In this document: positions 19,786-61,760 of the stretch, one piece after another | Layout: each line of letters opens with the position of its first letter | How positions within the stretch are numbered: the stretch's first letter is position 1 | DNA from: Patescibacteria group bacterium | GTDB taxonomy: Bacteria; Patescibacteriota; JACPGU01 | NCBI GenBank assembly: GCA_041675145.1 | Contig: JBAYUK010000001.1 | Location: forward strand, 220,057 to 284,056 | Direction of reading: 5' to 3' | Length of the DNA: 64,000 bases | Notes under the pieces: model-generated | What the model was told of the DNA's origin: nothing | Databases searched by the model: none | Seen by the model: only the letters and a program-made list of their open reading frames with translations | Made by a program: the position numbers and the translations under genes

Positions 19786-20079
19786 TCATTCAAAGAAATA
19801 CGAGTGGCTACCGATATCAATAAGTATTAAAATTAACTGACTTCTGTCAGTTCTGTATAGCAGTAATACATCACTGCGTATGTGACATTCACGAAATTCT
19901 TGCATATCGCCCTTGAGTTGGTGGTCACGATACTTGCTTGCCAGCTTTTCCCCACGAGCGATCGTACGGATAATATCATTGAGTTCATCTAGTGCCTGTT
20001 GATACTTTCCTGATCGACAAATCTTATTATATGCCTTAACAAATCTTTTTGTTTTAATTTGTTGGTACATCTCAGACAC
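19786..20079 (-). CDS. yafQ: Type II toxin YafQ-like (RelE/ParE superfamily)
   Basis: HQLKGDMQEFRECHIRSDVLLLYRTD...GSHS. 8-bp overlap with the upstream antitoxin. Confidence 0.7.
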   Translation of the reverse strand: MSEMYQQIKTKRFVKAYNKICRSGKYQQALDELNDIIRTIARGEKLASKYRDHQLKGDMQEFRECHIRSDVLLLYRTDRSQLILILIDIGSHSYFFE

Positions 20080-20347
20080 CTAAATCCTTAATAAACTCTT
20101 CAACATCAGTATATACCTTTCCCTCTCGTAATGTCTCCTCGACCTCTTTCTTTAAACGCACAGCAAGCGCTTTTTGCTCAGCCCTAGAAGTAGGCTTTCG
20201 AGAGGGCAAAAAAGGCAAGGCCTGATCATGTACCGCCTGCTGAAAGAACACTTTAATTGCAGTAGACATGTCCATCCCTAGGCCAGCAAAGGTTTTTTGC
20301 GCCTCTTTTTTCAGCGATTCATCAATACGAACATTGAGAGTGGTCAT
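20072..20347 (-). CDS. dinJ: Type II antitoxin DinJ/RelB family
   Basis: MTTLNVRIDESLKKEAQKTFAGLGMDMSTAIKVFFQQAV. Confidence 0.7.
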   Translation of the reverse strand: MTTLNVRIDESLKKEAQKTFAGLGMDMSTAIKVFFQQAVHDQALPFLPSRKPTSRAEQKALAVRLKKEVEETLREGKVYTDVEEFIKDLGV

Positions 20348-20413
20348 AGTAGTAATTTAGTAATATATACATTGTAATTACGAAGTCGTTACCTGTCAAC
20401 ACTAAGTCTCCAC

Positions 20414-21486
20414 CTATTCATACCACATGTTCTCGATTTTTTGACCGAGTTCAAAGGTATCTGCATGGCTTAGGACTCCTCGGTACGACTGCATTGTTTG
20501 CAGTAGCTTTTTCTCAACTATCTTTCCGTTTCTATACTCATCCAACTTGTGTCGAATATTTCTAATAATTCGTTGTCGTGTCTTACTTCGAACGAGTCTG
20601 TGGGTCGGAAACACTACATACCCTAGAAAATCTATTCCTTGAGAAAACTTACGAATACTGGTCTTATGCGGGTGAAGTGTGAGTCGCAACTGGTTATGTA
20701 AGAAGCTATTTAGTACTGGGGTTAGCTCCATAAGATACGCCTGGCTATCTGAGACAATCACGAAGTCATCGGTATAGCGCACATAGTTCTTGATACGCAA
20801 GGTATGTTTCACAAACTGATCAAATTCATTCATGTAGATATTGGCGAACAACTGAGATGTGAGGTTTCCAATAGGTATACCTGTTTTTCGGGAGCCCTCC
20901 TTACTCTCTCTCTCTCTCTCTCTCTCTCGAAGGTGCCTACCTGAAGGCTATAGCTTTGGATAATATTCTGGATCAACTGAAGAGCCCGCAAATCAGTGAT
21001 GCGTTTCGAGATAATATCAAATAAGATGTCATGATCGACTGAATCAAAGAATTTACGAACATCACATTTTAGAGCAAAGCATGGGCGAGTGTTGTTACGC
21101 GATACTGAACGCAACATATTCTCAAGAACCGCTACTCCCCGGTGAGTGCCAAAACCTATGCGACAAGAAAAAGATGTGGCTATAAATGTCGGTTCAAAGA
21201 TAGAGTTTAAAACTCTAAACAACGCGTGATGCACTACCCGATCCCGAACTTGAGCTTTATGAATATGTCGCTGTTTGGGATCCTGGATATAAAATCCTTG
21301 ATAAGGCCCGTGCTGATAAGTTTCGCTTTTAAGCTCGCTATAAAGGGCAAATAAGTTTTGCTCTATATCTTTTTCAAAAGCTATCACATCTTCCTTGTGC
21401 CTCTTATCATGTCGGAATTCTTCCCATGATAGAAAGAGATTTGGTACTGAAATAATGGTATGATAGATTTTGGAAAATTTCTGCAT
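20414..21486 (-). pseudogene. DGR reverse transcriptase, interrupted by a +1/-2 frameshift inside a (TC)12 tract
   Basis: N-terminal segment (frame of 20830-21501) has RT motifs 1-3 (FALKCDVRKFFDSVDH). C-terminal frame reads ...GIPIGNLTSQLFANIYMNEF...YVRYTDDFVI (DGR-specific I/LGxxxSQ plus YxDD). The two frames meet in the GA/TC repeat. Confidence 0.8.
20904..20928. repeat. Dinucleotide microsatellite (CT)12C on plus, (GA) on the coding strand, inside the RT gene
   Basis: ttaCTCTCTCTCTCTCTCTCTCTCTCTCga counted directly. Confidence 0.95.
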
Positions 21487-21508
21487 ACTAATAATATACA
21501 ATATCCCA

Positions 21509-21856
21509 ATGGACCACTTCGATATACCCTTATTTAAAAAGTCATACGACCTGTATAAAACACTGTATGGGTACCGTCTTGCTGTACCAAAACTAGATCG
21601 CTATGGTATCTGGCAAAAGACCGAGAATACCTTACTAGAAGTAATCGAACACGTACTCCTTGCAAGTCAAAAAGCAAAACAAGAAAAGATCTCCCATCTA
21701 GAACAAGCAAGCTCAAGCCTGAACCTTCTTCGTGTTTTTATCCGCCTCATGAAAGACACGAAGGCACTGGACATGAAAAAGTACCTCATACTAGAAGTAG
21801 CCATTGAAGAGATAGGCCGCATGCTTGGTGGCTGGATAAAGTCTACAAAAGAATAA
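21509..21856 (+). CDS. avd: DGR accessory variability determinant (Avd), four-helix-bundle family
   Basis: MDHFDIPLFKKSYDLYK... and C-terminal LEVAIEEIGRMLGGWIKSTKE resemble Bordetella bAvd (..IAEVGRILGSWI..). ATG at 21509. Alternative TTG at 21470. Confidence 0.7.
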   Translation: MDHFDIPLFKKSYDLYKTLYGYRLAVPKLDRYGIWQKTENTLLEVIEHVLLASQKAKQEKISHLEQASSSLNLLRVFIRLMKDTKALDMKKYLILEVAIEEIGRMLGGWIKSTKE

Positions 21857-21881
21857 ATACCCACTAAGAGTGGGTATTTAT
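21856..21881 (+). terminator. Hairpin terminator directly after the avd stop
   Basis: atacccact-aag-agtgggtat then ttat. Confidence 0.5.
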
Positions 21882-21901
21882 AACCTGTTCTAGGCGAGAT
21901 G

Positions 21902-22019
21902 ACTTCCGGGAGGACGACACGCCCACATTGTCGTTGCGGTTACTGTCCCAGTTGTTGTTGACATTGAGACCGTCGCCATCAAAGCTGCCAATGTTGACAT
22001 GGTTGCCGTCCGAATCGAT
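21902..22019 (-). repeat. DGR template repeat (TR)
   Basis: 118 bp collinear with 22368-22485. 15 mismatches, all at plus-strand T (= A in the minus-sense TR). Encodes an Asn-rich peptide (NHVNIGSFDGDGLNVNNNWDSNRNDN). Confidence 0.85.
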
Positions 22020-22271
22020 AATTGCCTTTCTCCATCCGTTGTGTTTCACTAGAAATCGAGACGTTTACCGCACTGCTTATCTCTTTTTCCTGTATCTTTT
22101 TTGGGGGCTTACTCCACCAGAGAGAGGCAAGAAGTTCGATCTCTATCCTTTTTTGCACACTACCGTCATCCTTAGATAACGATACTCCGGCATCCCAGGC
22201 GAGATATCTCGTGAGTTTAAACCGTAATCCAAACTACATGAACGAGATACTCATACTATATAAGAATTCAA

Positions 22272-22309
22272 AGTAAAAGAAAATGCCGACAGCTAAAGCT
22301 GCCGGCATT
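22272..22309 (-). terminator. Rho-independent terminator of the DGR target gene
   Basis: atgccgacagc-taaa-gctgccggcat followed by a T-run on the minus strand. Confidence 0.5.
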
Positions 22310-22335
22310 GCAAAAAGGGTTCAAAAGTAAAAGTA

Positions 22336-23151
22336 TTAGGGGTTCAAGGACTCAAGAGCCTTCGTAAACTTCCGGGAGGACGACACGCCCACATCGTCGC
22401 CGCGGTAACTGCCCCAGTAGCTGTCGACATCGAGACCGCCGCCATCAAAGCTGCCAATGCGGACAAGGCTGCCGCCCGAATCGATGGAAGCCGTCCTGGC
22501 ATAGAGCTTCATAAAGATCCGCTCCCCAGTGGCCAAGAAATGGCCGATGATGGTATACACCATCACCTGAGCGGTGGGAACTTCTTCGAGCTCCTTGTCC
22601 AGAAGCTCACCTTGCTCGCTCCAGTTTTTAGCAAGCGATCCTGGCACCTCGTCCTTGCGGACCAAGTACCACCCAACGGTTCCTTTTTCTTGAGCAAAAG
22701 CCTGGGAATTGTACCAGGCATCCTCATGCCGATAGAAGAGCGCTCTCTCGACTCTGGACCTTATATCCAGAATGGAGAGCGGAAAAACAGCCACGAGAAT
22801 GTGGGTTGTCTTACACGCACGCAACTCCTCTTCAGAGTACGGCACTTCTTCCAGAGTCTGCAACTCTTCAAGGGTAGGAGTAATGCCGAAGTGTTTTGTG
22901 GCCTCTTCCACCCCGAAGTAGTTGCTTCCCATAATCCTGCGTGCCTTCACCTGGGATTGTGAGGACTTGCTCGTCATGGCAATGAATTCGACAGCCCTTC
23001 GGGCAGCCTCACCCATCATTTCCTGGAAAATATCACTGTTGACGACTGCCAACTGTGCGTTTTCCTTGCTCGTTTCTGCCAAGCCTTGCTTGGCGCCGAT
23101 CTCGGCCAACTGACCGAGTTTGTCTTTCTGTCCGGATGTGATCAATTTCAT
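22336..23151 (-). CDS. DGR target (variable) protein with C-terminal VR
   Basis: C-terminus ...IDSGGSLVRIGSFDGGGLDVDSYWGSYRGDDVGVSSSRKF aligns with the TR-encoded peptide. AAGGAGG RBS. Confidence 0.8.
   Translation of the reverse strand: MKLITSGQKDKLGQLAEIGAKQGLAETSKENAQLAVVNSDIFQEMMGEAARRAVEFIAMTSKSSQSQVKARRIMGSNYFGVEEATKHFGITPTLEELQTLEEVPYSEEELRACKTTHILVAVFPLSILDIRSRVERALFYRHEDAWYNSQAFAQEKGTVGWYLVRKDEVPGSLAKNWSEQGELLDKELEEVPTAQVMVYTIIGHFLATGERIFMKLYARTASIDSGGSLVRIGSFDGGGLDVDSYWGSYRGDDVGVSSSRKFTKALESLNP
22368..22485 (-). repeat. DGR variable repeat (VR) at the 3' end of the target gene
   Basis: Offset +466 from the TR, no indels. 3'-proximal 27 nt (plus 22368-22394) identical to the TR and GC-rich (IMH-like). 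Confidence 0.85.
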
Positions 23152-23452: not shown

Positions 23453-23971
23453 CTAAAATACACTCTCTTCTGCTATTTTTTGCCTAATATCACCATCATC
23501 TAAATATACAAAATATTTATTAGATAACTTCTTATAAAGTGAGGATCTAAACCTTCTATTTGGAAATAATATTTTTTCTAGTCTTTCTTCCTCAACAAGA
23601 AAATCGATTAACATTTTGTAGTCCCCATCTCCAGAAACTAACACGATTTTCCCGAAATCTTCTCGTCTATATATTCGTACCATAATGTTGAAGATAATAT
23701 CAGAATCAACATTCCCCTTCTTGGTGCCGAGCATAGCAGCGTTATGTTGACGAAAAACTAAAATAAAACCTGCGAGTTGTATCTCTTCATATAAATCCTG
23801 ATATTGTTCTTGGACATAGCCTAAATAGTAATATGCCTGAGTAACGCCATATTTCTTTTCAAGATATACACGAAAACGAGCTAGATCAATATTCCAAGGA
23901 GGATCGATTTTGGCTGTACCCATATATAGATTCTGTCCATCAATAAACGCATAGTTGTTTTGTTTTTGCAT
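23453..23971 (-). CDS. NYN-domain (LabA-like) protein, predicted RNase
   Basis: YAFIDGQNLY ... VLVSGDGDY signature. Confidence 0.75.
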   Translation of the reverse strand: MQKQNNYAFIDGQNLYMGTAKIDPPWNIDLARFRVYLEKKYGVTQAYYYLGYVQEQYQDLYEEIQLAGFILVFRQHNAAMLGTKKGNVDSDIIFNIMVRIYRREDFGKIVLVSGDGDYKMLIDFLVEEERLEKILFPNRRFRSSLYKKLSNKYFVYLDDGDIRQKIAEESVF

Positions 23972-29859: not shown

Positions 29860-31881
29860 TTATAAAATAGAAAGCGGATCCACATCTATCGTCCAATCAG
29901 ATGGAACTTGTTTTAGCAGCTGGTCCCGAACTACATACCTCTGATCTGTAGTATCTTTTCGTATTTTCAGCACGATGGTTCTTAGATACTTGCCATATTT
30001 TTTTGCAACGAGTGGTTCAAATGGTCCAACAATAGTTACAGTATTTTCTGGATCCACTTTTTCTTTCAGTTCATCCAATTGTATTTTAAGGTCTTTTGCT
30101 TTTTTCTCAGCCACTTCAGGCTTGAGGTGTGCGTAGGACAATACCACCAAATCCATAAACGGTGGGTAACCAAAGAGTTCTCGCTTTTTCAGTTCCTGTG
30201 TGGCAAAGCCAGTGTAATCACCTTTACGAGCTAACTCAAAAATAAAGTGATCCGGCATTTCAGTTTGCACAACCAGCATCCCCTTCATTTCCCCACGACC
30301 AGTACGACCCGCCAACTGAACAAGGAGCTGGAAGACTCCCTCCTCGCTCCTATAGTCTGGTAGCAGCAGTGGACCATCAATGGAGATGACCGCAGCCAGA
30401 TCCACACTGGGAATATCCCAGCCGTGGACTACCATCTGCGTTCCTACAATAATATCTATTGCGCCTTTTTTAAAAGATTCGAAGATGTTTAAATAATCTT
30501 CTCCTTTTTCCATTGTGTCACGATCCATTCGCGCGATAATTGCCTGCGGGAATGACTGTTTTAATTCCATCTCCACGCGCTCTGTTCCTCGTCCACCAAA
30601 AAATATCTGCGCTCCTTGGCAGTGCTTACATTTATACAAGAGCTCATACTGGCGACTACAGTGGTGGCACCACATCTTGTTATTGGACATGTGATACACC
30701 AGTGGCACGGAACAATCTTCGCACTCTGAGACCGTACCACAGTCCTGACAGCGTATAATTGTCGAGGCACCACGACGATTAAGAAACACGATCGCCTGTC
30801 TCTTATGTGCCACAATGAAGCGCAACGACTCTTCCAAGTAACTGGAAAGATACGACTTGTTACCGTGTTGCCGTTCATCCCACATGTTTAAAATCTTTAC
30901 AGTGGGAAGTTGCTTGTTATCTACCCGCTCTGGTAGTGATAAATATTCCCATTCACTGGTTACAACTTTCTGGTAGCTGGTAACTAGCGGGGTGGCCGAC
31001 CCGAAGATAAGGGCTGCACCAGTACGCTTGGCCAGTTCTTGGGCAACAAAATGTAATTCGTAACGAGGAGTTTGATCTGACTTGAACGAAATCAAGTCGT
31101 GTTCCTCATCCACTATTATGATCTTAAGATTAGGTAGTGGAGCAAAAAGAGCTGAGCGCGAACCTACCACCACTTTCTTTTGTCCGTCTCTTATACCCTC
31201 CCAGATCTTAAGACGCTCCCCACTTGTCATCTGTGAGTGAACTACTGCGACACTTTCACGCCCAAATACTTGCTCAAAACGAGCAATGGACTGGGGTGTT
31301 AGGGATATCTCAGGCACAATAAAGATCCCTTGTCCGCCTGATTCTAAGACATGTGCCATAGCACGAAGATATATTTCAGTCTTACCAGACCCCGTGACAC
31401 CATGGAGCAGAAATGGAGTATATATTTTCTTATCTATAGCAGAAGTAATTTTTAATAGAGCAGGCTTTTGATAAGCGTTTAAAATAAGGTCGTTTATAAC
31501 GAACTTCTGACCGTGCGTTTCTTTTTTCGCCTTTACGCTTGAAAGCTTTCTTTTTCTTTTCCGTACATTGGGTGGCAACATATGGAATAAGGTAAGTGGC
31601 AGTGAGGTATAGAAATGCTGGGCAATAGTGCGGGCAACCTCAATATGCACAGGAGATAGTACTGGCTCCTCATCAATAATCTTTTTTATCTCACGAGTCG
31701 TAAAGCTGGGCTTCGTATTATGAATAGCGAGCACTATCCCGTTAATAGTACGAGGTCCTAATGGTATCTGCACGAGTTGCCCTATTATAACAATACCCCG
31801 TAGTTCCTCGGGGATGGCATAGGTAAAAAGCTCCAGATTACCTGAAGTCTTGGCATTAGGAGCGATATCTGCGTAGGTCAT
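29860..31881 (-). CDS. priA: Primosomal protein N' (PriA helicase)
   Basis: [12 protein letters not shown] Walker A, DEEH box, Cys4-Cys4 zinc region (CQDCG...CEDC...CHHC...CKHC). Confidence 0.85.
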   Translation of the reverse strand: MTYADIAPNAKTSGNLELFTYAIPEELRGIVIIGQLVQIPLGPRTINGIVLAIHNTKPSFTTREIKKIIDEEPVLSPVHIEVARTIAQHFYTSLPLTLFHMLPPNVRKRKRKLSSVKAKKETHGQKFVINDLILNAYQKPALLKITSAIDKKIYTPFLLHGVTGSGKTEIYLRAMAHVLESGGQGIFIVPEISLTPQSIARFEQVFGRESVAVVHSQMTSGERLKIWEGIRDGQKKVVVGSRSALFAPLPNLKIIIVDEEHDLISFKSDQTPRYELHFVAQELAKRTGAALIFGSATPLVTSYQKVVTSEWEYLSLPERVDNKQLPTVKILNMWDERQHGNKSYLSSYLEESLRFIVAHKRQAIVFLNRRGASTIIRCQDCGTVSECEDCSVPLVYHMSNNKMWCHHCSRQYELLYKCKHCQGAQIFFGGRGTERVEMELKQSFPQAIIARMDRDTMEKGEDYLNIFESFKKGAIDIIVGTQMVVHGWDIPSVDLAAVISIDGPLLLPDYRSEEGVFQLLVQLAGRTGRGEMKGMLVVQTEMPDHFIFELARKGDYTGFATQELKKRELFGYPPFMDLVVLSYAHLKPEVAEKKAKDLKIQLDELKEKVDPENTVTIVGPFEPLVAKKYGKYLRTIVLKIRKDTTDQRYVVRDQLLKQVPSDWTIDVDPLSIL

Positions 31882-35501: not shown

Positions 35502-35837
35502 TTATTCTTTTTCATCTACTCCAGTAAGAAACACTCTCATTTCAAAACCACCTCTTTTTTCTTTTTTATCAGTGCGTTTCTTCTCTATATCTTCCCATAC
35601 TATACCATAGTTAGTAGCAATTGCCTGAAGTACTTCAAGACAGTCGGCCAACTCCTCCCCGACCCCCCCCTGATCTTGTGCACCCTTTACTTCACCTGCT
35701 TCTTCTAGTAGCTTATCTTTGAGCATCTCACTATATTCTTCTACTGTAAGAATTCTTGTATGAGGCGTCTCTCCACCTGAGATAATCTTCTCAGGAATAC
35801 GGTCACGAACTAGTTTGTTGTATTCTTTGTATGGCAT
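35502..35837 (-). CDS. MazG-like nucleotide pyrophosphohydrolase
   Basis: KLVRDRIPE ... EELADCLEVL all-alpha NTP-PPase motifs. Confidence 0.7.
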   Translation of the reverse strand: MPYKEYNKLVRDRIPEKIISGGETPHTRILTVEEYSEMLKDKLLEEAGEVKGAQDQGGVGEELADCLEVLQAIATNYGIVWEDIEKKRTDKKEKRGGFEMRVFLTGVDEKE

Positions 35838-60179: not shown

Positions 60180-61760
60180 TTATTTCACAACCGGTTTAGA
60201 TCGCGTAATAAGTGCAACGAGCTTATCTGCCTCGCCTACCTTAAGAAGCGCAGATAGCAAGAGGTAAACAAAGATACCGACACCACCGGCAAACACCGTC
60301 TGAGTCATAAGGCCAATGGTAGTTAAGGTATTTACCAGTGGTGCTGTGAAGTACAACATTCCATACGCGGCAAGCCCTGCAACCGTACTCATAGCGATAT
60401 ATTTTCCGGCAGACAGGAACATAGCGTTAAAGTCGATAGCAGGAAAACGAGTACGCAGTGCGTAGAGCAGGCACATCATAGAAACAAAAGCGGCAATGGT
60501 TGAACCAAGAGCCAGACCTGCAACTCCTAAACCTAAGAAATGTGCAAAGAAAATTGAGGCGACGACATTTACCACCACATCAACGGCCGTAATCTTAAGA
60601 GGGGTTTTCGTATCATTGATGGCATAAAAGATTCGAGCCAAGAATGGAAGCAAGCCTTCTGCTACAAGGCCAAGCGCAAAATACCCAAAGGCACGAGAGG
60701 TACGCACTGTGTCTATAATATCAAAGAGGCCGGCACCAAGCACCAGACGCACAATCTGAGCGCGCAGAATCAAAGACAAGACCATGAGTGGAATCAGTAG
60801 GAAGACAATGAAGTTGAAGGTCTTCGTAAAGTGCAGGGCAAACATATCCGACTTCTTCTCGTTATATGCATAAGAAAGCAACGGGAACACCGAAGTGGCA
60901 AAAGAGAGCCCCACCAGTCCAATCGGAAGTGAAATAAGATTGTTAGCCAAGTGGATTACCGCGATACTTCCCTCCGTTAACCATGATCCAATAATCGTAT
61001 CTACAAAGATGTTAATTTGTGTGAGTCCTAACCCTAATGTCACGGGGATCATAAGAATCAGAATCTTTTTAAGGTGTGGGTCTTTGAAGTCAAAAACTGG
61101 CTTAAAACGGTACCCGACTGCAAGCAAGCTGGGAACTTGGACTAAAAAGTGTCCAGCCGCACCGATTACCACACCATACGCAAGGCCCTCTAGGCCGTAG
61201 CGCGGGACAAGGTAGAGTGCTCCAATAATAATTCCAATATTGTAGATAATAGGAGCAACTGAATAGACAAAGAACTTACCAAACACATTTAGCACTCCCC
61301 CTACAATAGAGGAAAGAGCGAAAAAGAGCGGGGAGAGCAACATAATACGCGTTAACCAGATTGTAGTTGCGAGTTGCTCGCCTGAGAACCCAGGAGTAAT
61401 AAGACGCACGAGCCACGGTGCAAAAATAAAAACTACCGTAAGTATTGCAATCAGTGAGATGGTTGCGACATTGCCGAAGTTGTTGACCACGCGCCACGCC
61501 TTCTTCTCGTCTTTAAAAACTAGACTGGAGAAGATAGGAATAAAGGCAGCAGAAAGGGCTCCTAGTATAAGGAGGTTAAAGATAAGATCTGGGATACGAA
61601 ACGCTGCATAGTAGCTATCCAGCTGATGCCCTGCTCCGAATTCACCAGCGAGTACTCGGTCACGGAAAAGACCCAGTACTCGGGAAATAAGAGAAGCAAC
61701 AGCAATTACTGCTGCGTTGCGACTGACTTGGCCTATTTTTGAGACAACTTTGCTATCCAT
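60180..61760 (-). CDS. murJ: Lipid II flippase MurJ (MviN)
   Basis: VASLISRVLGLFRDRVLAGEFGAG...DSYYAAFRIPD N-terminal signature, 14 TM. Confidence 0.85.
   Translation of the reverse strand: MDSKVVSKIGQVSRNAAVIAVASLISRVLGLFRDRVLAGEFGAGHQLDSYYAAFRIPDLIFNLLILGALSAAFIPIFSSLVFKDEKKAWRVVNNFGNVATISLIAILTVVFIFAPWLVRLITPGFSGEQLATTIWLTRIMLLSPLFFALSSIVGGVLNVFGKFFVYSVAPIIYNIGIIIGALYLVPRYGLEGLAYGVVIGAAGHFLVQVPSLLAVGYRFKPVFDFKDPHLKKILILMIPVTLGLGLTQINIFVDTIIGSWLTEGSIAVIHLANNLISLPIGLVGLSFATSVFPLLSYAYNEKKSDMFALHFTKTFNFIVFLLIPLMVLSLILRAQIVRLVLGAGLFDIIDTVRTSRAFGYFALGLVAEGLLPFLARIFYAINDTKTPLKITAVDVVVNVVASIFFAHFLGLGVAGLALGSTIAAFVSMMCLLYALRTRFPAIDFNAMFLSAGKYIAMSTVAGLAAYGMLYFTAPLVNTLTTIGLMTQTVFAGGVGIFVYLLLSALLKVGEADKLVALITRSKPVVK

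Follow-up and report, generated by a model that had tools for sequence, protein, structure and literature searches.

The diversity-generating retroelement (DGR) considered here lies in a 64,000-nucleotide stretch of a Patescibacteria group bacterium genome (assembly GCA_041675145.1, contig JBAYUK010000001.1, positions 220,057 to 284,056; hereafter the window), and the closest described systems are the B3 elements of the candidate phyla radiation (CPR) and the DGR of Bordetella phage BPP-1. Passages of Wu et al. 2018 (Nucleic Acids Res 46:11, PMC5758913) define B3 as TR-(avd)-RT, with TR the template repeat, RT the reverse transcriptase and parentheses marking the reverse strand, and assign 90% of CPR DGRs to this class. 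According to the same passages, components on different strands need at least two transcription units, TR and RT may themselves sit on different strands and hence need not be co-transcribed, and over half of the candidate DGRs were discarded for premature stops or truncations. Set beside the B3 elements as these passages describe them, the window element has the same component order and strands, with no architectural difference, the same host group (its Avd has an exact match from a Patescibacteria metagenome-assembled genome, MAG) and the same type of target, a protein with no recognisable domain. The survey retained putatively intact elements only.

The BPP-1 DGR (mtd-avd-TR-brt; structures 8ub7-8ube) shares with the window element a homologous RT, Avd, adenine-specific differences between TR and the variable repeat (VR), a G+C-rich end resembling an initiation of mutagenic homing (IMH) sequence, and a stem-loop just 3' of TR. 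The phage avd precedes TR, shares its strand and contributes its last 20 nt to the functional RNA, whereas the window avd sits in reverse orientation between TR and RT and reads towards TR. The window RT additionally carries a 16-residue (RE)n insertion that is missing from the phage enzyme, bRT, in an alignment with 8ub7_A. In the Bordetella element, TR is followed directly on its 3' side by RNA that folds into an Avd-binding stem-loop, and similar stem-loops are predicted immediately downstream of TR in 207 other DGRs (bioRxiv 10.1101/2023.10.23.563531).

Taken as a whole, the window locus is best explained, with a probability of about 0.8, as a CPR-type B3 DGR that is run as separate short transcription units and whose RT is probably switched by slippage in a repeat. 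The complete cassette lies within ~20400-23150 in the order target-VR, TR, reverse-strand avd, RT, with all four components present:

20414-21486, minus strand: DGR RT, out of frame as assembled; N-terminal part 21486 to 20830, C-terminal part 20851 to 20414
20904-20928, minus strand: (GA)12 repeat within RT, (CT)12 on the plus strand; encodes (RE)n in the loop before GIPIGNLTSQ
21487-21508, between the two strands' genes: 22-bp avd-RT spacer with two overlapping -10-like hexamers (predicted function)
21509-21856, plus strand: avd, 115 aa; Pfam, NCBIfam and our own profile, and an exact protein match (P0121)
21853-21881, minus strand: hairpin with a perfect 13-bp stem, its T-rich tail on the TR strand, 21 nt past TR, overlapping the avd stop codon (21854-21856)
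21902-22019, minus strand: TR, paired with VR
22282-22309, minus strand: terminator-like hairpin with a 12-bp stem and tail TTCTTTT, just past the target stop codon
22336-23151, minus strand: DGR target gene, 271 aa, an open reading frame (ORF) with VR at its 3' end
22368-22485, minus strand: VR, 118 nt, 87% identical to TR

The element has a DGR-clade RT (its ORF frameshifted as assembled), an adenine-specific TR/VR pair and Avd, which place it among DGRs, and avd lies on the reverse strand between a TR and an RT that share a strand, as in B3. All 15 TR/VR mismatches fall at TR adenines. The last 27 nt of VR (22394 to 22368) are G+C-rich, identical to TR and IMH-like, and VR ends 32 nt ahead of the target stop codon. 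The target protein has no family match in Pfam or NCBIfam. The Avd protein matches Pfam bAvd (PF22296; E=3.5e-18, 66.5 bits against a cut-off of 40), and our own Avd hidden Markov model (HMM) covers positions 1-115 starting at ATG 21509. The identical protein P0121, from a Patescibacteria MAG, carries the NCBI name 'MAG: four helix bundle protein [Patescibacteria group bacterium]'; for the homologues P0153 and P0186 the NCBI name is 'diversity-generating retroelement protein Avd'. On the RT side, ATG 21486 corresponds to position 1 of the RT HMM. The nearest solved structure is Bordetella phage bRT (8ub7_A, E=7e-61), followed by group II intron RTs (E=2.6e-32). The frame-repaired RT, aligned with 25 homologues, contains GIPIGNLTSQ and YTDD, corresponding to the DGR-clade motifs I/LGxxxSQ and YxDD. 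Database look-ups with the window's two possible RT N-terminal products and with the target protein gave no record.

The start codons of avd (ATG 21509, plus) and RT (ATG 21486, minus) are separated by a spacer of 22 bp (21487-21508); TR, VR and the target gene are all on the RT strand, and avd alone is on the opposite one. The original prediction, made from the letters of this stretch, had described avd and RT as head-to-head with start codons 22 bp apart and had suggested that this layout may couple or separate Avd and RT expression. The geometry is borne out by the coordinates and by HMM alignment from both ATGs, the need for two transcription units is upheld, and an Avd and RT HMM scan of the 64-kb window found no further RT and no second avd. 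The layout had also been called atypical, a description that is accurate only with respect to the Bordetella prototype. Two sets of 80 loci, one from GTDB species representatives (nearly all Patescibacteria) and one from metagenome contigs, were scanned with our own Avd and RT HMMs. In the first set avd was present in 78 loci and lay on the opposite strand directly upstream of RT in 76 of them; in the second, 74 loci were divergent and none same-strand, 4 lacked upstream sequence and 2 had no detected avd. The identical head-to-head pair thus occurs in 150 of 152 avd-bearing loci, so its juxtaposition in the window is not chance. The layout flagged in the original prediction is near-universal among the relatives of this RT; it is the ordinary, previously published B3 architecture of CPR/Patescibacteria DGRs and adds nothing new architecturally.

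Among relatives the order VR - TR - (avd) - RT is stereotyped, and TR and RT share a strand in nearly all of them. The start-codon gap in 14 close relatives with unambiguous ATGs ranges from -2 to 22 bp, the window having the largest; at -2 bp, the palindrome CATG holds both start codons. Two exceptions (L032:3192-4225 and L068:6044-7002) keep the convergent TR/avd module together with VR while RT is on the opposite strand or elsewhere. Judged from the sequences of these exceptions, the tail-to-tail TR-avd unit is the most conserved linkage. A (GA)13 run lies beside avd in L032. Two further contigs carry a second, more divergent DGR with the Bordetella-like same-strand avd-TR-RT order (L005:1306-2916 and L062:5009-7043), and both architectures therefore coexist in single CPR genomes. 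In ten records (L162-L171), public calls place a 115-aa ORF without a Pfam hit on the RT strand (1055-1402, plus), overlapping a segment of the opposite strand (1207-1617) that matches the Avd HMM; in these records avd seems to have been called on the wrong strand.

The RT had been treated as intact in the original prediction, but its ORF is frameshifted in the window at (GA)12, the sole dinucleotide run of at least 6 units in the 64 kb. With 12 units, a 218-aa N-terminal product reaches a stop ahead of the YTDD motif; either 11 or 14 units give an intact RT of 356 aa, so that removal of one GA unit suffices for repair. Both RT halves are fully conserved outside the repeat. An independent assembly of the same locus (L081; ENA ERZ27247358) has (GA)11 and a called, intact 356-aa RT. 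Over 6,348 bp the two sequences are 99.95% identical and differ at two places only, (CT)12 versus (CT)11 and position 22439. The latter, the sole base substitution in these 6.35 kb, is a VR site templated by a TR adenine (TR 21973). This substitution is consistent with, and suggestive of, recent DGR activity in the population, although a single site is not proof. As in simple-sequence repeat (SSR) contingency loci, the repeat is uninterrupted, lies inside the ORF and sets the RT frame by its length, and tract length differs between near-identical genomes, as read from consensus assemblies only.

The same RT loop holds (RE)n, with n of at least 2, in 37 of the 120 best RT homologues. Wherever the DNA was inspected, these are uninterrupted GA runs (L024 and L039, 10 units; L084, 10; L120, 25; L136, 9; L154, 10), and the (GA)10 of L154 gives a second natural out-of-frame RT. 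In L107, the loop that carries GA elsewhere holds G9. The loop also takes an in-frame insertion of ~190 nt in L137 (3046-3242), rich in short G/C hairpins such as CCCCCCTTGAGGGGGG. A variable-gap DNA pattern around the GA run had no match in JGI metagenome contigs. Programmed ribosomal frameshifting on the GA run was considered and set aside by reasoning from the codons: it would need a -1 shift without re-pairing codons on GAG/AGA.

Two hairpins bear on where the minus-strand transcripts end. The original prediction had read the one at 21856-21881 as an avd terminator, but the terminator scan rated it (21881 to 21853) terminator-like on the minus strand only, with the tail TCTTTTGTAG. A stable hairpin lies within ~25 nt 3' of TR in 55 of 59 relatives, with differing sequences. 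By the criteria of the scan, a T-tailed hairpin no more than 110 nt past TR is found on the TR strand in 45 of 59 and on the avd strand in 4 of 59, against 8 of 265 controls (3%). Because the T-tail is on the TR strand here and in most relatives, the hairpin is in the first place a 3' element of the TR RNA, probably a terminator or a 3' stem-loop. The TR RNA would then probably end at this hairpin, in which case RT would need a promoter of its own. An Rfam scan of the window returned tRNAs only.

The spacer offers a candidate for such a promoter. TACAAT (21497-21502, plus) stands 6 nt from the avd ATG, and TATATT (21498-21493, minus) stands 6 nt from the RT ATG in the context TG-TATATT-6 nt-ATG. 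The hexamers, on opposite strands, overlap by 2 bp, and 6+6+6+6-2 gives the 22 bp exactly. The earlier expectation that the two promoters must lie inside each other's coding sequence would hold for the -35 regions only, which would be intragenic; the -10-like hexamers fit in the spacer. A Shine-Dalgarno-like motif precedes 18 of the 74 window ORFs. Among the 56 without one, -10-like hexamers matching at least 4 of 6 positions occur 6 times at a distance of 5 nt and 8 times at 6 nt, over a background of ~2.5 per position, and those matching at least 5 of 6 occur 4 times at 6 nt, over a background of ~0.7. Both avd and RT belong to this class of Shine-Dalgarno-less genes with the hexamer-6 nt-ATG arrangement, as do the genes starting at 31881, 49091 and 37271. 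The pattern suggests that leaderless mRNAs are frequent in the source organism. Other Shine-Dalgarno-less window genes with a -10-like hexamer 5-8 nt before the ATG, besides these three, include those starting at 61760 and 59147.

Under the proposed mechanism, the target gene transcript would end at its own terminator (22309 to 22282) and the TR RNA at the hairpin overlapping the avd stop codon. RT could then not rely on read-through from TR, and avd and RT would be transcribed divergently from back-to-back promoters, whose overlapping -10 boxes would yield leaderless mRNAs and admit RNA polymerase to only one promoter at a time. The window genotype would be RT-off, since the shortened protein it encodes does not include the YxDD catalytic motif, and loss of one GA unit would restore RT. 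The GA repeat is probably a slippage switch on the whole mutagenesis machinery.

Several observations weigh against this account. No promoter was detected in the junction by a standard sigma-70 scan, whose hit count did not exceed that of shuffled controls. In 13 close relatives the junctions show no recognisable hexamer-6 nt-ATG geometry and the positional test was flat, and for this reason two leaderless divergent mRNAs from back-to-back promoters are proposed for this genome only. The hairpin could be the counterpart of the Bordetella Avd-binding stem-loop, by analogy, besides or instead of terminating transcription, and transcripts may read through it into RT. The (GA)11/(GA)12 contrast comes from two consensus assemblies that possibly derive from the same reads. 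Finally, the Avd protein scores 79.6 bits against NCBIfam NF033474 ('DGR protein Avd'), 0.4 bits short of the cut-off of 80.

Simple repeats are concentrated in the same part of related elements. In 145 non-redundant loci (973 kb), the avd-RT core holds 66 of the 72 G/C-containing simple repeats in 20% of the sequence, a density 43-fold higher than in the flanks (binomial test, p ~9e-39). A more distant clade, with RTs no more than 52% identical, carries poly-G of 7-13 nt between the conserved parts of avd and RT. The G residues of this junction tract invariably fall on the RT strand, and its modal length is 9-10 nt; tracts of (GT)n, (GA)n or (CT)n are found less often. Tract-bearing loci number 62 in all (for example L033:4965-4975, L044:1971-1980, L152:1767-1776 and L043:4949-4974).

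Near-identical genomes differ in these tracts. L020 and L128 have G10 and G9 at RT codon ~309 (L020:911-920) as their sole difference in 3.5 kb, and only one of the two gives a complete RT match, that of the other being truncated. A repeat is also present at this third repeat site inside RT in L142. Between L152 and L155 the junction tract, G10 versus G8, is the sole indel, alongside 15 VR substitutions, 14 of them at TR adenines, and 2 elsewhere. Both ATGs are in frame in L152 and both out of frame in L155, and L172 has a third junction allele of this lineage, G7. As negative controls, the junction of a repeat-free locus was identical in 10 assemblies (P0340 look-up) and a G7 tract was identical in 4 (P0339 look-up). 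The P0264 look-up gave no polymorphism; there the tract lies inside the queried ORF, so that exact matching fixes its length. Within the 64 kb of the window, the only other G/C tract of at least 8 nt is a C8 at 35663-35670.

Frame analysis of the 62 tract-bearing loci found an avd-strand ATG upstream of the tract, with the frame open into it, in every case. This ATG is in frame with the body of avd in 17, and 38 have no in-frame canonical start. An RT start codon lies downstream of the tract in 40 and is lacking there in 22 (L018, L023, L044, L046, L049, L073, L151, L157 and others), and in these 22 the RT frame is open back through the tract to an ATG 19-70 nt upstream. The frame offset of the upstream ATG is equal for RT and avd in 19 of the 22, where chance would give about one third. 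In these loci the avd and RT ORFs both appear to span the tract head-to-head, the tract giving Gly from one strand and Pro from its complement, and one slip would therefore shift both together. RT starts beyond the tract are supported by the glycine-bearing N-termini of database RTs from this clade: 35 of 120 begin like MGSSFLRGGGDL or MRGGGDL, with 3 to 5 glycines. Several more have two glycines only (P0241), and 11 are N-terminally truncated gene calls. Most consensus assemblies, about two thirds of the junction-tract loci, are out of frame, which fits off-biased phase variation, neutral drift with transcriptional slippage, or errors in the few MAGs that seem to be long-read assemblies.

Variable simple repeats cluster strongly in the avd-RT core of related elements, apparently without an earlier report. 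A literature search pairing DGRs with phase variation or slippage, incomplete in coverage and thus compatible with an earlier description, gave nothing on avd/RT repeats; Roux et al. (bioRxiv 10.1101/2020.04.01.020958) make no mention of frameshifts, homopolymers or slippage, and the searched passages of Wu et al. 2018 (PMC5758913) do not mention simple-sequence repeats in avd or RT. In tract-bearing DGRs, uninterrupted homo- or dinucleotide tracts lie in the 5' coding region, the junction or an internal loop of the genes, and differences of 1-3 units between near-identical genomes move the ORFs in and out of frame. Similar arrangements are known from phase variation, where poly-G/C tracts lie in ORFs of Campylobacter and Neisseria and a (TA)n tract is found where the divergent promoters of hifA and hifB overlap in Haemophilus influenzae. 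The likeness extends to one tract common to two divergent genes; in one DGR clade, however, the tract lies in overlapping coding 5' ends rather than in a shared promoter as in hifA/hifB, and the genes controlled would belong to a targeted-mutagenesis machine rather than encode a surface structure. It is roughly an even bet, on sequence comparison, that the Patescibacteria DGR machinery itself forms a contingency locus in which hypermutable repeats gate the mutator, with RT on at n=11 and off at n=12 in the window lineage, and junction tracts of the sister clade (about a third of loci, those overlapping both 5' ends) co-switching Avd and RT.

The short-unit account has to be weighed against a different transcript structure, in which RT has no promoter of its own and is translated from a long TR-RT transcript that continues past the hairpin and covers avd in antisense, on the model of the TR-brt linkage in the Bordetella phage element. 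Antisense interference between avd mRNA and this TR-RT RNA would in that case be the main effect of the head-to-head geometry. Such a transcript would suit the common strand of TR and RT in nearly all relatives and the lack of a canonical sigma-70 promoter in the junction. The Bordetella element, moreover, needs ~140 nt of RNA 3' of TR for cDNA synthesis (bioRxiv 10.1101/2023.10.23.563531), a length that would here pass the hairpin into avd antisense. It is nevertheless improbable given the T-tailed TR-strand hairpin right after TR in most relatives and its rarity in controls, the TR-avd module retained in L032 and L068 where RT is on the other strand or elsewhere, and the statement in the passages of Wu et al. 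2018 (PMC5758913) that TR/RT co-transcription is not required. A simpler view of the GA frameshift, as an inactivating mutation in a dying DGR with no switch involved, draws on the out-of-frame RT in the window and on how common broken DGRs are, to judge from the candidates discarded in the survey passages of Wu et al. 2018 (PMC5758913). Decay of this kind is likewise unlikely in view of the intact RT in the near-identical L081 and of the sole substitution between the two, which is indicative of recent DGR activity. Conservation of both RT halves is complete outside the repeat, and no defect is seen in Avd, TR, the IMH-like end or either hairpin.

Alternatively, the repeats might be non-regulatory: (RE)n, poly-Gly and poly-Pro would be tolerated low-complexity sequence in loops or at N-termini, length differences would be assembly noise or neutral drift, and transcriptional slippage would rescue expression if needed. 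The (RE)n lies in a loop that is absent from bRT and that accommodates the 190-nt insertion of L137, and the out-of-frame share of junction-tract loci is what unselected length predicts. Some MAGs seem, by their contig names, to be long-read and hence error-prone at homopolymers, and the G7 tract did not vary among its 4 assemblies. Tolerated repeats would not readily account for the excess over the flanks, and every (RE)n checked in DNA is a pure GA run, with no mixed Arg/Glu codons. The tract is the only indel in each of the three pairs (window/L081, L020/L128 and L152/L155), L172 adds a further junction allele, the remaining L152/L155 differences cluster in VR, and the repeat-free control locus was invariant. 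The co-phasing of avd and RT frames across the shared tract also argues against it. On balance this explanation is rather doubtful, and the slippage-switched B3 element with short transcription units is preferred.

Two neighbouring loci border the cassette. An NYN-domain protein gene (23453-23971, minus) lies directly upstream of the target gene, beside uvrB, and a pair encoding a RelB antitoxin and a YafQ-family toxin (19786-20347, minus) lies immediately downstream of RT, between the DGR and uvrC.

The conserved terminator-like hairpin past TR suggests that CPR DGRs make their functional TR RNA as a short transcript of its own, a point relevant to reconstituting or engineering these compact elements. 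Gene callers mis-annotate the N-termini of avd and RT in the tract-bearing loci, and surveys that drop DGRs with premature stops would systematically miss or misclassify off-phase elements. If co-switching holds, a tract shared by both genes would supply a functional reason for the conserved divergent orientation. Repeat-gated RT and Avd, if real, would subject the rate of targeted hypermutation to stochastic, heritable switching between on and off, which would amount to bet-hedging on evolvability in organisms with tiny genomes.

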